From positions 1 to 11,525 of the forward strand of contig JBDGSM010000073.1 of assembly GCA_042217545.1 (NCBI GenBank): a DNA stretch of 11,525 bases, written 5' to 3'. Within the stretch, counting starts at the first letter, position 1; each line of letters begins with the position of its first letter. This stretch comes from Candidatus Nanohalobium sp. Its GTDB lineage: Archaea; Nanohalarchaeota; Nanosalinia; Nanosalinales; Nanosalinaceae. Below are positions 3,001 to 6,000 of the stretch, in pieces. Made by a program: the position numbers.

Positions 3001-6000
3001 CATTTTTTCCGCGATCTGCGTGGCTTTTCCTCCAGGTGCTGCGCACATATCCAGGATTTTCTCTCCTGGCTGCGGATCAAGGATATGTGCCGGGAGGGAA
3101 GCAGATTCTTCCTGTACGTAGTACTCTCCTCTCCAGTGCATCGACGTTTTACCTGGCGTCTCAGTGCTTTTCAGCCTGTAGATCTTCCTGTTCCATGAGG
3201 CCTGTTCTACGTCTTCGAACCTCTCCTTTATCTGCTGGTCGAAGTTCTCTGAGGCCTTCAGGTCGTTTCTGCGTGCGGTATTGGTGGGATGGCTTTCTCT
3301 TTCCTTTTTGAAGGCCTGCCAGTCGTCTATTATCTCCCGGTATTTCTGCATCGTCTATCTTTGTTTCTGGTTTAGTTACTGTTAAGACCCCTTTTCTTCC
3401 GTGGAATTTTAGCGTTTTTTCCTTAGATGGGTTTTTGAGTTTTGAAGTTTATCCTGTACTGTATATGGCCAGTGAGCTGCTTGAACGGGATGAGGAGGGA
3501 AACTACGTGAAGACCTACGGAGATACCTTGAACCCTCTGAGACAGCAGTACCGGCATCTGAGCTTTTCCGATCCTCTGCCTCCAGGTAAGGCGGAGAGAG
3601 TGATGAACGAGGTCAGGGCCGCGGATAATTTTACGGAGAAGTATATTCCTCACCCTGAAGTCCTTGATTACTCGATAGAGGACGGATCGGTCAAGCTGGA
3701 GAACGTCGGAGGCGCTGAGACGGTGAAGGAGTACCTTGAGTCAGCAGAGGAAGATGCCTCAGAGCTGGGCGAGATGATGGGGCGGCTTATAGCGGATATA
3801 CACGGCTTCGGATCCCACGGCGACCCAGAGTTGGATAACTTCCTTTACTGCCATGGAGACATACTATCCCTGGACCACGAGTTCTACAGCGAAGAAAAAA
3901 ATATTGAAGACATCAGAGGAGACCTGAGACTGATCGAATCCGACGCAAGAACCCTGAAAAAGGAGACCTATATCGAATTCATGAAGGCCTTTGAAGAAGC
4001 CTACAGGGAGGAAACGGAGTCAAGAGGCGATTTCCCTGTTGAAACCGATTTCACAACCGGGGAAAAGACTTTCCAGTTCATTGAAGGCCTGGCTCTTACG
4101 AAGAAACGCCAGGAAGATGTAGATATAGAAAATGTGCTTCAGAGATCCTACAATCTTTTCAGGAACACTGTGGACGACTCTAGAAATCCGTAAACTTTCT
4201 CTGACCAGACTCTTCTTTGCCAAAGGCCTTTCTGAGATCTTCTTCCAGTTCAGGGCCTTTACTGCGGTCGTAAAGCGTGGCCGCGGGATGGTAGACCGGC
4301 ATAATTTTCTGGCCTTCACGGGTGAATACCCGTCCGTGAATCTTCGAGATGCCCTGGCTTGTGTCGAGAACATGTTTCGAGGCGAAGTTGCCCAGCGTCA
4401 CGATCATATCCGGGTTAACCTCTTCCAGTTCTCTTTCAAGAAGTGGCGCCCAGGCCTCGATCTCTTCGCTTTTCGGATCCCGGTTGTCTGGGGGCCTTAC
4501 CTTCACAAGGTTGGTTATGTATATCTCGCTTCGGTCCACACCGATCTTGGATAGTATTTCGTTCATCCGTTCTCCTGCACGGCCTACAAACGGCTCCCCC
4601 TCTTCCACTTCGTTTGCTCCTGGCGCTTCACCTATGAAGACTACTTGAGCATCTTCAGGCCCTGTCGCTGGAACGAACCGTTCATCATTCATGTAGTTCG
4701 GATGTATGGTTTCGAAGAAATCCGAGTATTTCTCCCTGAAATCCATACAGTTTTAACGGCGGCAAAGACTTTTTACAGTTTCTCAGAACAGATCCTCAAG
4801 CTCTTCTACGGCATCGTAGACAACATCTTCATCGACATCTTTGACTTCCCTGGATCCTTCACCGTAAACCTCGACCCTGAAATCCCTGTCGCTATTCCTG
4901 TGAACGTGGAAATCGCCTGGTTCCAAACCTGAGCCAGTTATCTGGTCGTAGGCTTCTTCAGCGGCATCCAAGTCAATCACTGTGTTCGGTTCCCCTGGGT
5001 ACTGGTTGCCAGAGTTAGCTATAGGGCCTTCGCCGTGCATAAATACGTCATCTCTCAGTACTTCGCCGGTCGCTACATCTACAGTATATCTTGGACCTGT
5101 GCTAAAATCCGTGAAGTACTCAACCTCAAAACCCTTCATCGTAACATATTTTTTTTACCAAAGAATTATAAAAACATTCTCGTATGTGTTTCTCCACTGT
5201 TTTTCCCCACCTGCAGAGGCCTATGAACCATTCAGGAATAGATGCCTTCAGGTCGTATAATCGCTGCAAGAAGAGATAGAAGAAAGTTTACCGTCCGGAA
5301 GACCAACGCCAGGACCAGAAGGAAAAGAGTTATCAGCCGGGCCTGGAACCAGGCAAGCACTTTTTTGTCCGTGGAAGGCCTTCCAACCGAGGACCTCTCC
5401 CTCTTCTTTCCGCCGGATACCGTGTCTTCGTAAAGTATGAACCCTTTCTCCGTGTACCTGACCTCGGCCTTTCCAGACATACAGGAAGATTACTTCCGAG
5501 ACCTACTTGAGCACTTTTACACAGCGAAAATCACTTGACAGGACAACAATACCTCTGAAGCAGATCGACAGTTCTAAAACCAAAAAAACACAGGAAAAAA
5601 TCCCGACTCCAGGATTTGAACCCGAAGCTCGCCTCCGGGAGCTTCTTACATCAAATGCTGGCGAGGGAACGAAGTTTCCCGACTCCAGGATTTGAACCTG
5701 GGACAAGCCGCTCTACAGGCGGCCGCTCTGCCAGCCTGAGCTAAGTCGGGGTTGGTGATACGGGTTCTTAGCTCTTTGAGAAGCCTTCTGGCTTCGACCT
5801 GAGCTAAGTTGGGGAGTGATATGTAGTTGATCTGTCCGGGTTTTGAGGCCTTGAAGCAGGCCTTGTAACCGATATCCGTGGATGGGGTACGAAGATTTAA
5901 GAGGGTTACCGGAAGCTTGTGGAAGGTTTCTCCGGGGGAAAGAATGTTATGGGCGGAAGTTTGTCTCTACTTTGTCTGATTTCTTGATGACTTCGTCTTT

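Follow-up and report, generated by a model that had tools for sequence, protein, structure and literature searches.

Introduction

Partial tRNA duplications at archaeal att sites consist of a direct repeat that runs from the T-arm to the 3' end, one copy belonging to the complete gene and the other to a fragment; in one report on integration into tRNA genes, repeats of 44 bp flank 9-23 kb (PMC9897764). MITEs and the REP/PATE-type hairpin repeats of IS200/IS605 are short, non-coding, hairpin-forming, multi-copy, mostly intergenic and assembly-breaking, and integration of the casposon/CRISPR type by Cas1 duplicates a partly palindromic target over a long stretch (14-37 bp), prefers tRNA 3' ends and builds arrays by repeated insertion. 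Duplication-inverted copy-duplication rearrangements arising from template switching, with junctions at short homologies, are known in human genomics, and the small hairpin repeats of fungal and sponge mitochondria have spread without a known enzyme. Transposition of introns between tRNA genes was reportedly described in Thermoproteales by Fujishima et al. in 2010. This transposition is cited as a positive control in a preprint (bioRxiv 10.64898/2026.10.13.758758).

The traits listed for att duplications, MITE/REP repeats, Cas1 integration and template-switch rearrangements recur in inserts at tRNA gene ends of Candidatus Nanohalobium sp., studied here at the tRNA-Tyr gene of an 11,525-nucleotide contig (the window); like the Thermoproteales introns, these are near-identical short inserts across different tRNA genes of one lineage. 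They have the appearance of a selfish DNA repeat, not described so far, that spreads with no enzyme of its own, and a literature search (supplements outside its scope) returned no published description of a copy-inverted copy-hairpin-copy structure at tRNA ends. In contrast to att duplications, the insert measures about 50 nt instead of kilobases, comes without an integrase but with an inverted copy and a hairpin module, and is found at about a quarter of tRNAs and at 5' ends too. Unlike in MITEs and REP repeats, the inverted and direct repeats on the flanks are target-derived, and a partner transposase was not found (Y1 transposase in 0 of 5 genomes). Cas1 integration differs in that Cas1 occurs in one of five genomes, the inverted copy is left unexplained and the junctions lie in a homology block, whereas template-switch rearrangements differ from the present ones in scale (tens of bases here), in the recurrence at one gene class and in the conserved passenger module. 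The Thermoproteales introns, for their part, are unlike inserts that lie outside the mature tRNA, lack a splice motif and duplicate the gene end.

Results

A single tRNA, tRNA-Tyr(GUA), is called at 5677-5750 by both ARAGORN and Rfam, and on its 3' side copy, turn, inverted copy, hairpin and copy follow one another (Table 1). The genome-wide survey's note had described a duplication of this 3' end around a 54-nt insert, and both are as stated: the insert accords with the earlier description, and the perfect 22-mer from T-loop to discriminator occurs exactly twice in the window (5677-5698 and 5601-5622, 0 mismatches), two matches being obtained in 0 of 200 shuffles. The T54-N73 part of copy 2 derives from tRNA-Tyr itself. 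Repeat and insert are no assembly artefact, because the contig of an independent assembly of a public run, possibly of the source sample, is identical over 5215-5705 (zero differences, word depth 462). A joint skipping the insert, or an insert-less allele, was found in none of the contigs from four public runs, contigs being silent on processing and polymorphism. With Rfam 15, the threshold was reached in the window only by the tRNA and a 5S rRNA, and the elements at six loci gave no meaningful match at E up to 1.

Table 1 Features of the tRNA-Tyr gene and its 3' and 5' elements (window coordinates)
Feature	Position	Strand	Basis or remark
tRNA-Tyr(GUA), complete cloverleaf	5677..5750	(-)	ARAGORN; Rfam RF00005, 62.3 bits, model positions 1-71
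Copy 1 of repeat, last 22 nt of tRNA-Tyr	5698-5677	(-)	inside tRNA
Turn, AACTTCGT	5669..5676	(-)	sequence
Inverted partial copy of tRNA 3' end ("box"), TCCCTCGCCAGCATTTGA	5651..5668	(-)	local alignment
Linker TGTAA, element-borne	5646..5650	(-)	same in G012 Ser-GGA and G001 Met elements
Hairpin GAAGCTC-CCGGAGGC-GAGCTTC, "type C" of GAA-stem-TTC family	5624..5645	(-)	
Copy 2, perfect 22-nt repeat of tRNA 3' end	5601..5622	(-)	leading GG and G5623 match the element's GGG
T6 run, likely archaeal terminator (putative role)	5595..5600	(-)	now 3' of copy 2
5' outer copy, CCCAACTTAGCTCAGG	5798..5813	(-)	tRNA positions 1-16, 1 mismatch
5' hairpin GAAGCC-AGAA-GGCTTC, GAA-stem-TTC family	5780..5795	(-)	sequence and fold
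5' inverted copy, GAGCTAAG	5767..5774	(-)	complement of tRNA positions 6-13
Spacer, 16 nt, after 5' inverted copy	5766-5751	(-)	

Immediately 3' of the discriminator base of tRNA-Tyr lies a small palindrome, GGGAAAC-TTC-GTTCCC, formed by the turn AACTTCGT and its flanks, and analogous turns are seen at relatives' loci (e.g., GGCG-cTTTCAg-CGCC). The inverted copy matches the reverse complement of T54-N73 in 15 of 19 columns, a score reached by 0 of 200 shuffled inserts; its predicted fold amounts to -17.2 kcal/mol with copy 1 and to -29.2 kcal/mol with copy 2 (as good in 0 of 200 shuffles). A mirror-image element is also present on the 5' side of tRNA-Tyr (5813-5751; predicted fold -20.9 kcal/mol, z -5.9), and such 5' elements were found at 6 of 68 tRNAs.

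Our own scan (37 ARAGORN tRNAs, 30 with downstream sequence; last 18 nt sought up to 250 nt downstream with at most two mismatches) located a second 3'-end copy behind 8 of the 30, recovering the identical eight tRNA genes listed before. The remaining tRNAs and three control comparisons gave at least 5 mismatches each; the sole exception arose when the 5' end of Tyr was looked for upstream (3 mismatches), a match that turned out to be the real 5' element. The Glu-CUC locus spans a 100-N gap, yet two further gap-free copies lie beyond it, and two sites were additional: Met, which has three hairpins and lies where contig C59 begins, and Ser-UGA on C53, followed by a foreign 3'-end copy. Overall, a spare copy accompanies 17 of 60 tRNAs, about a quarter, behind non-coding inserts of 43-115 nt. 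The duplicated stretch, T54-N73, measures about 20 nt, but cases as short as 13 nt and as long as 37-40 nt also occur; the repeat length of 20-27 nt proposed earlier stands only in part, the range being partly chance because the 3 nt preceding the copied T-loop belong, in the window's hairpin subfamily, to the element and not to the tRNA. The oligo-T run said to follow the second copy is present at Tyr (T6 at 5600-5595) but does not hold for the other seven sites.

The window hairpin belongs to a genome-wide family, GAA-stem-TTC, of about 100 copies per Mb, which is mostly intergenic (77/110), roughly ten-fold enriched at tRNAs and also fills canonical tRNA introns, in either orientation. The inserts do form families. 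Among 70 genomes of the phylum, 18 carry the exact pattern of type-C hairpin, next G and T-loop, at 33 places altogether; this subfamily is almost confined to Nanohaloarchaeota, and viral contigs contained no exact match to the pattern. When a hairpin with a second copy, behind it, of the 12-mer in front of it was searched for in general, 33 of 786 cases were positive against 13 of 786 in the control, the true matches being nearly all tRNA ends. The sole convincing non-tRNA case is the duplicated 3' end of a PCNA-like protein gene, which has no universal homology block. Hence the target is wider than the tRNA 3' ends first assigned to it, and includes 5' ends (6/68), T-loops inside spare copies and this one protein-gene 3' end. 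Nested double-hairpin units sit inside the T-loop of spare copies, and they alone show a 4-5-nt duplication, AATC(C).

Near-identical inserts behind different tRNAs in different genera, as reported before, are exemplified by Tyr in the window and Ser-GGA in G012 (45/45 nt), and one identical 34-mer is present in six genera; coding flanks within the genus are only 66-72% identical. Orthologous tRNAs are indeed variable: filled, empty and remnant states were observed among 19 tRNA-Tyr loci compared, and Lys-UUU provides a within-genus pair with matching trailers, G000 having the empty and G001 the filled state. Hairpin number and type differ at the same tRNA, and arrays and nested insertions occur. 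On sequence grounds, the spare copy is dispensable, because its T-loop decays (TTCCCAT in Gly, TTCTAAT in Ala-CGC), hairpin units insert within it (at 4 of 23 type-C loci, plus two in G001) and, in L017, a T6 run stands directly behind copy 1.

Hairpin stems and spare copies are much better conserved than the adjoining non-coding DNA, to the extent that stems and spare-copy positions 61-73 stay perfect where their non-coding neighbourhood is no longer alignable. Such conservation would be expected if the flanks were functional RNA structures under selection, acting as a processing, termination or folding signal, with families spread by gene conversion; a read-through pre-tRNA would then carry the hairpin, the spare end and the inverted copy, which could pair with the real end or with the spare one. 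The stable stem of copy 2 followed by T6 at Tyr, the tracking of the local tRNA by the inverted copy and the chiefly intergenic location of the hairpin family are in agreement with a function of this kind. We nevertheless regard it as rather unlikely, since just 17 of 60 tRNAs have a spare copy, orthologues may be empty, filled or decayed, the hairpins vary in count and type at the same tRNA, spare copies suffer nested insertions and broken T-loops, T6 can directly follow copy 1 (L017) and the same units populate introns in either orientation; moreover, single mismatches in the stems (3 G.T, 3 A.C, 13 other) exhibit no G.T excess.

The inverted T-loop arrives together with the insertion: 10 of the 15 tRNAs that have a second copy possess it, as against 3 of the 43 that have none (controls 1/14, 0/15, 3/43 and 1/43). 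The box complementary to the T-loop that the survey's note had described is not a fixed guide but an inverted copy, longer than stated there, whose outer part tracks the local tRNA. Its T-stem portion matches the local tRNA, most clearly in the unusual T-arms of relatives; beyond the T-stem, tRNA specificity is weak in G000 and G001 when own and other tRNAs are compared, the own tRNA being clearly the best match only for Ala-UGC (0 of 37 others equal) and Asp (2 of 42). Identity is never complete in the inverted copy, at about 70-85%, whereas the direct copy is perfect.

Eighteen type-C elements have their tRNA upstream; in 14 of them positions 61-72 of the copy are identical to the local tRNA, and in the other 4 a single nucleotide differs. 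Where tRNA positions 51-53 are other than GGG (nine cases), the copy deviates from the tRNA in all nine, with GGG in seven and GTG in two; a tenth deviating copy reads GAG against GGG in its tRNA. In this subfamily, both junctions between local and element sequence consequently fall within the universal T-loop, and, with tRNA and element meeting there, the true duplication is T54-N73. That the tRNA end is duplicated at the insertion point is upheld, but there is no sign of a staggered cut of 20-27 bp. The position of the type-C junctions in the universal T-loop points to homology-guided copying, and the direct-inverted-direct order with junctions at T-loop microhomology is that of a template-switch duplication.

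For the mobile element proposed earlier, no shared mobilising enzyme emerged from a search of five genomes with five Pfam families, in which no transposase, integrase, Cas1 or reverse transcriptase was common to all five. Cas1 (PF01867) was detected in one of the five and is absent from G000 (92% complete), Y1 transposase in none, reverse transcriptase in one, TnpB above the cut-off in G000 only and tyrosine recombinase above the cut-off in three. A guide-RNA reading of the IS200/IS605 type was dropped, TnpB exceeding the cut-off in G000 alone.

These results bear on the view that a miniature transposon is moved in trans by an enzyme that makes a Cas1-like, staggered cut of about 20 nt at the tRNA 3' end. 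Known targets of casposons include tRNA 3' ends, repeats of 24-37 bp are duplicated by Cas1, and the discrete insert family between direct repeats, as well as arrays consistent with repeated insertion, would suit such a transposon. We hold it to be improbable, however, because of the patchy enzymes (Cas1 1/5, Y1 transposase 0/5, reverse transcriptase 1/5), because the inserts possess no fixed terminal inverted repeats, because a staggered cut leaves the inverted copy unexplained and because the left edge of the duplication is set by the universal T-loop and not by a fixed distance. Of the hallmarks of MITEs, we found neither element-owned fixed terminal inverted repeats, only the T-loop and its complement with outer parts that track the local tRNA, nor a short target duplication of fixed length, nor, with the five Pfam families in the five genomes, a related autonomous transposase element; the Cas1-family integrase characteristic of Cas1 integration was detected in only one of the five.

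A direct repeat over the tRNA 3' part, as at att sites, is present, and T-loop-to-3'-end repeats are what integration into tRNA genes classically leaves behind, so that the elements might be relics of integrated viruses or plasmids; integrase recombination at the T-loop would have produced attL in the tRNA and attR in the partial copy, and nearly all of the intervening element would have been deleted later. Against this very improbable origin stand inserts of 43-115 nt with one family architecture at a quarter of tRNAs, a uniformity that random deletion could not give, the absence of integrase genes or remnants from these non-coding inserts and the mirror elements at 5' ends.

Finally, the insert might be a non-canonical T-arm intron, copy 1 and insert being spliced out and copy 2 used in the mature tRNA. 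The product would be the same tRNA, and introns composed of these hairpins abound in the genome. Our splice-motif test (two 3-nt bulges 4 bp apart at the cut sites) is home-made and moderately sensitive; its first two geometries recovered 1 of 17 and 0 of 17 canonical introns, and the first was used in relaxed form. This relaxed bulge-helix-bulge test was passed by 10 of 17 canonical introns (null 1/17) but by only 2 of 16 elements, so that the intron alternative raised in the survey's note failed the calibrated test. Tyr in the window is one of the two passes, but its match rests on G.U pairs and the T run, and at some loci T6 runs come directly after copy 1 or within the insert; splicing of the T-arm is thus scarcely credible. 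The open frames of the splicing endonuclease measure about 181-213 aa, a size presumably indicative of the single-unit type, which is strict in its choice of substrate. Readings as C/D-box or H/ACA guide RNA, K-turn, tRNA-like mini-gene or split tRNA were dropped by eye for want of the boxes, of an ACA tail or of a matching 5' half.

Discussion

We infer that the element is a DNA-level, non-autonomous repeat outside the mature tRNA, and we favour, with a probability of about 0.5, its spread as a transposase-free repeat through template switching or recombination guided by the T-loop, with the upstream tRNA staying functional. In the predicted route, a module consisting of linker and GAA-stem-TTC hairpin, drawn from the family of about 100 copies per Mb, would be copied into the end of the tRNA-Tyr gene as follows. 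A nascent DNA strand would overshoot the tRNA end by a few bases (step 1), snap back and copy the tRNA end in reverse as far as the T-loop (step 2), where it would switch into an existing element elsewhere by means of the T-loop complement common to all elements (step 3). Linker, hairpin and GGG would be copied from that element (step 4), and the strand would then return to its own template at the T-loop (step 5); it is because of this re-entry that T54-N73 and the trailer would be copied twice. The T-loop being near-identical in all tRNAs, any tRNA end could serve as a target with no need for a transposase, and the conserved D-arm may be the counterpart of the T-loop for the 5' mirror elements. 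The upstream copy would remain the working tRNA, and the spare copy, held in a stable stem with the inverted copy, would subsequently decay. The order of these events is a reconstruction.

Several observations count against T-loop-guided copying. A perfect direct copy beside an imperfect inverted copy conflicts with a single copying event, which predicts both to be perfect; faster decay of the inverted arm, or selection for its imperfection, has to be assumed. The PCNA-like case does without a universal homology block, and the contigs of the public runs contain no insert-less allele. The conservation of hairpin stems and spare copies would be accounted for just as well by selection on an RNA or a DNA structure. 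A tyrosine recombinase above the cut-off was present in three of the five genomes, and an unrecognised nuclease may be involved. A wider version of this reading, namely that the elements are a new kind of mobile DNA without its own enzyme, which uses T-loop and D-arm as recombination sites and has its flanks rebuilt from each target, is put forward tentatively as a somewhat doubtful proposal.

If T-loop-guided spread is correct, tRNA genes would have a sequence-visible route by which to gain short structured inserts without a transposase, and the universal T-loop would act as a recombination or switching site between unrelated tRNA genes, also between genera. How archaeal tRNA genes become interrupted is an open question, and the same modules are seen here in leaders, trailers and introns; the wider version, if true, suggests that archaeal tRNA introns may receive short structured inserts, and grow in length, by the same process; the route by which such introns arrive is described as still open in bioRxiv 10.64898/2026.10.13.758758. 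The empty, filled and remnant states may serve as fine-scale lineage markers in Nanohaloarchaeota. In practical terms, the partial tRNA copies contributed by the elements may be miscounted in annotation, and assemblies break at tRNA ends because of the elements: in this genome, seven contigs end 0-2 nt past a tRNA, and 9 of the 32 matches from the species collection are no more than about 80 nt away from the end of a contig.

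Structure of the elements flanking tRNA-Tyr

The contig with tRNA-Tyr (C71) belongs to a 1.03-Mb assembly of 82 contigs, and the window encodes archaeal proteins (TFB, the Top6B C-terminal domain and DUF63); the tRNA starts with C1 and has no long variable arm, features that fit an archaeon. The TFB shares 92% identity with that of Nanohaloarchaea archaeon SG9 and 87% with that of a Candidatus Nanohalobium genome, which places the organism among the nanohaloarchaea, within DPANN. Behind its own T-loop-to-discriminator end (copy 1) lie an insert and a spare end (copy 2), a 22-mer that occurs exactly twice in the window, two matches being obtained in 0 of 200 shuffles. 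A contig assembled independently from a public run, which may be the source sample, covers 5215-5705 with 0 differences at a word depth of 462, which excludes binning or scaffolding as the cause of the structure. The genome-wide survey's note had described a box in the insert that is complementary to the T-loop. This box is present but longer than described: aligned with the full T54-N73 segment in reverse complement, positions 5668-5651 match in 15 of 19 columns, a score reached by 0 of 200 shuffled inserts. Two competing stems are therefore possible in the trailer, with predicted energies of -17.2 kcal/mol for copy 1 with the inverted copy and -29.2 kcal/mol for the inverted copy with copy 2, the hairpin standing at the tip (as stable in 0 of 200 shuffles).

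A mirror image of the 3' element, overlooked in the survey, sits upstream of the same tRNA, so that a target range limited to tRNA 3' ends must be revised. On the opposite strand it has the order of the 3' element, that is, gene end, spacer, inverted copy, linker, GAA-stem-TTC hairpin and outer copy, and it is predicted to fold with -20.9 kcal/mol (z = -5.9). The first 10 nt of the tRNA are copied upstream in 6 of 68 tRNAs, against 2 of 68 in the control.

Features of the tRNA-Tyr locus and the 5S rRNA gene in the window
Feature	Positions	Strand	Basis
tRNA-Tyr(GUA)	5750-5677	minus	ARAGORN and Rfam
Order 3' of tRNA-Tyr: AACTTCGT, TCCCTCGCCAGCATTTGA, TGTAA, hairpin GAAGCTC-CCGGAGGC-GAGCTTC, G, copy 2, T6		minus	sequence
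Copy 2, 22 nt, GGTTCAAATCCTGGAGTCGGGA	5622-5601	minus	sequence
5' outer copy of tRNA positions 1-16, one mismatch	5813-5798	minus	sequence
5' hairpin GAAGCC-AGAA-GGCTTC	5795-5780	minus	sequence
GAGCTAAG, complement of tRNA positions 6-13	5774-5767	minus	sequence
Spacer, 16 nt, between GAGCTAAG and tRNA-Tyr			sequence
5S rRNA	1430-1544	minus	

Occurrence at tRNA genes

Our scan of this genome (G000; 37 tRNAs called) gives the survey's count of eight: when up to 2 mismatches are allowed, a copy of the last 18 nt follows 8 of the 30 tRNAs with downstream sequence, all remaining comparisons having at least 5 mismatches except the Tyr 5' end sought upstream. The observation is confirmed and broader than reported. 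Own positions 61-73 are copied within 300 nt (at most 1 mismatch) in 17 of the 60 tRNAs of this genome and its complete congener (G001) that have at least 100 nt downstream. An inverted T-loop is found at 10 of 15 tRNAs with a second copy versus 3 of 43 without (controls 1/14, 0/15, 3/43 and 1/43); because it tracks the second copy, it must come in with the insertion rather than belong to the original trailer.

The insert could instead be an intron, which would need a bulge-helix-bulge whose cut sites are separated by one repeat period. The geometry used was a relaxed one, stricter or alternative ones having been dropped because they failed the positive controls. It passes 2 of 16 elements versus 10 of 17 canonical introns (null 1/17), and this reading was rejected; the Tyr element of the window is one of the two, its match depending on G.U pairs and the T run. 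At one relative's locus (L017), T6 directly follows copy 1. Spare copies hold nested inserts and broken T-loops, and copy 1 is therefore the working end. The element has no Rfam family.

Junctions of local and element sequence

The hairpin subfamily of the window (type C) was sampled at 20 further loci in 15 relatives, where it stands behind Ser-GGA, Ser-UGA, Ser-CGA, Ser-GCU, Met, Arg-UCG, Arg-GCG, Leu-UAA, Leu-CAA and Leu-AAG. The Tyr element of the window and the Ser-GGA element of one relative (G012) are identical in 45 of 45 nt, from ATTTGATGTAA to TTCAAATCC, and a second subfamily (GGATTTGATA-CCTCC-AGAAAATC), grouped by eye, is shared by Arg and Ala-GGC in this genome, Lys and Ala-CGC in the congener and Tyr in four other genera. 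The survey's interpretation is partly right, in that the inserts are mobile, grouped in families and tied to tRNA ends; its account of the box, of the target range and of how the duplication arises has to be revised.

Of 23 type-C elements, 18 follow their own tRNA; one of the others lies at a contig end and four have an extra hairpin unit just past the T-loop of the spare copy. In the 18, the copy matches the local tRNA throughout positions 61-72 in 14 cases and is 1 base off in 4. Where tRNA positions 51-53 are not GGG, all nine copies diverge from the tRNA at the 3 nt before the T-loop (GGG in 7, GTG in 2), and a tenth case has GGG in the tRNA and GAG in the copy. The T-stem part of the inverted copy tracks the local tRNA, even with unusual T-arms (GAGATTTG for the CAAATCTC loop-stem in a relative, L108). 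On either side, then, local and element sequence meet inside the T-loop, which is nearly identical across all tRNAs. The true duplication is T54-N73 and not the 20-27 nt of the survey's note, a range that arose because some tRNAs happen to carry GGG or CGGG before the loop, which lengthens the repeat. The discriminator is usually followed at once by a small perfect palindrome with a T-rich turn (GGCG-cTTTCAg-CGCC, GGCGAC-TTC-GTCGCC; GGGAAAC-TTC-GTTCCC in the window).

The GAA-stem-TTC hairpin family

The hairpin is not peculiar to tRNAs. This genome has 110 perfect hairpins (7 bp or longer) with GAA at the start and TTC at the end, and the congener has 85, versus 3 to 35 for eight control end-triplets. 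The zone up to 250 nt from a tRNA, 2.1-2.2% of the genome, contains 24 of the 110 and 22 of the 85, and crude intergenic space holds 77 of the 110. They are frequently double units (33 adjacent pairs), they occupy the long canonical introns of Glu-CUC, Ala-UGC and, reversed, Trp, and tRNA flanks also contain intron-like hairpin units.

Some intergenic double-hairpin units also adjoin gene starts in this genome (for example C26:27379-27427, C35:3454-3501, C64:3465-3509), readable by eye as frames of 19-20 codons ending in ..FE with a stop overlapping the next ATG. The palindrome AGGCCT occurs 3699 times in the 1.03 Mb, about 15 times the base-composition expectation (next palindromic hexamer, 2.3 times); it is common in intergenic flanks and GAAGGCC..GGCCTTC hairpins, and in the window stands, for example, at 5845-5850 and 5829-5834. 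About 35 nt past the 5S rRNA gene, a hairpin at 1373-1397 (minus), GCAAATCCC-GTTTTCT-GGGATTTGC, joins a T-loop-like word to its complement. In the congener, a PCNA-like ORF (L061:1330-1460, minus) has a second copy of its 3' end (..LAPRIEEE, stop), 37 nt long and with 5 mismatches; a stop codon is kept in both copies, and TCTAA and a GAAGCAT..ATGCTTC hairpin lie between them. It is the only convincing case outside tRNAs.

Turnover and spread

Of 19 tRNA-Tyr loci, 6 have the 3' copy and 12 the 5' copy, others having remnants without a copy or being empty. Lys-UUU, empty in this genome and filled in its congener, is a clean pair, in which the direction could be gain or precise loss: the trailer past the congener's spare copy (TCCACACCT) matches that past the tRNA here (TCCACGCCT). 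Glu-CUC has an array of two inserts, Gly-UCC, Ala-UGC and Ala-CGC each have further degenerate copies past copy 2, and a 52-nt double-hairpin unit sits inside the spare copy's T-loop at an identical position at two loci of the congener, with an AATC(C) duplication. Two relatives of different genera (G002, L010; G014, L008) share 93% identity over the 174 nt of tRNA-Tyr plus flanking elements, with no similarity in the surrounding DNA, while the G002 flanks align with those of its own congeners at 66-72%. This suggests that tRNA genes pass from genus to genus with their elements attached.

Within the phylum, 18 of 70 genomes and 12 of 32 genera have the exact type-C pattern, at 33 places in all (reversed-pattern control, 0); it is absent from the viral contigs searched, and slightly different forms exist in two other families (L103, L107, L111). 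A relaxed pattern matched 32 stretches in one genome per species of 185,579 species, by record title 18 from nanohaloarchaea or their named genera, 13 from "uncultured archaeon" and 1 from Pirellulaceae.

An orphan tRNA 3' end in the window (11164-11295, minus) resembles the congener's tRNA-Pro(UGG). A nested insert of several hairpins, about 105 nt long, interrupts the T-loop of this orphan end; neither ARAGORN nor Rfam finds a tRNA gene upstream, and the matching locus of the congener retains its tRNA. At C53:2738-2865 of this genome, three hairpins and a foreign 3'-end copy (GGTTCAAATCCTTGCTGCTCCA) lie behind tRNA-Ser(UGA), and the congener's Gly-UCC trailer has a similar foreign copy.

Possible origin of the elements

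To be explained are the direct-inverted-direct order, the perfect small palindrome at the first turn, the movement of module families between unrelated tRNAs with the outer parts of both arms local, the placing of both junctions in the sole stretch common to all tRNAs, the 5'-end mirror symmetry around the conserved D-arm, and the lack of a shared enzyme. Among the five enzyme families sought, none was common to five genomes (Cas1 in 1, Y1 transposase in 0, reverse transcriptase in 1; over the cut-off, tyrosine recombinase in 3 and TnpB in 1). The simplest account would be copy-choice DNA synthesis, or an equivalent recombination, in which a strand would snap back just beyond the gene end, then switch into another element at the T-loop complement, and finally return at the T-loop. 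We put at about one half the probability that the elements are DNA-level repeats without their own enzyme that spread in this general way, and lower that of the exact order of steps. Its weak points are that the inverted arm is always imperfect whereas the direct copy is perfect, that the PCNA-like case has no universal homology block, and that stems and spare copies are strongly conserved relative to their flanks, for which selection on structure would account equally well. Single stem mismatches have no G.T excess (3 G.T, 3 A.C and 13 other, a small sample).

Intron transposition in Thermoproteales, MITE and REP-type hairpin repeats, and Cas1-type integration are among the closest likenesses. 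So are the partial tRNA duplications of att type that integrating elements leave behind (PMC9897764) and a Caldiarchaeum tRNA gene disrupted via a mobile element (PMC3293823). The tRNA-end element fails a defining feature of each of these families, and its architecture was not found described in the main texts of the literature searched. We regard the elements as a new form of small non-autonomous repeat, with a fair chance that they represent a new mechanism.

Other observations

The archaeal RNase P RNA model has no match in G000, G001 and the relative G014, and sub-threshold matches only in 2 of 5 genomes (G012:C10:30827-31291; G021:C1:814096-814417), the former of 465 nt versus a 288-position model, as if the gene carried inserts. 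The elements seem to break assemblies. For nine of the 32 species-collection matches, the nearest contig end is no more than about 80 nt away, and seven contigs of this genome (C11, C13, C29, C35, C53, C54 and C64) end 0-2 nt past a tRNA 3' end. Of the tRNA-Arg-GCG that terminates C54, only the final 23 nt are present at one end of C64, where the minus-strand reading of C64 begins, and C59 begins inside the tRNA-Met that terminates C11 and then runs into the element.
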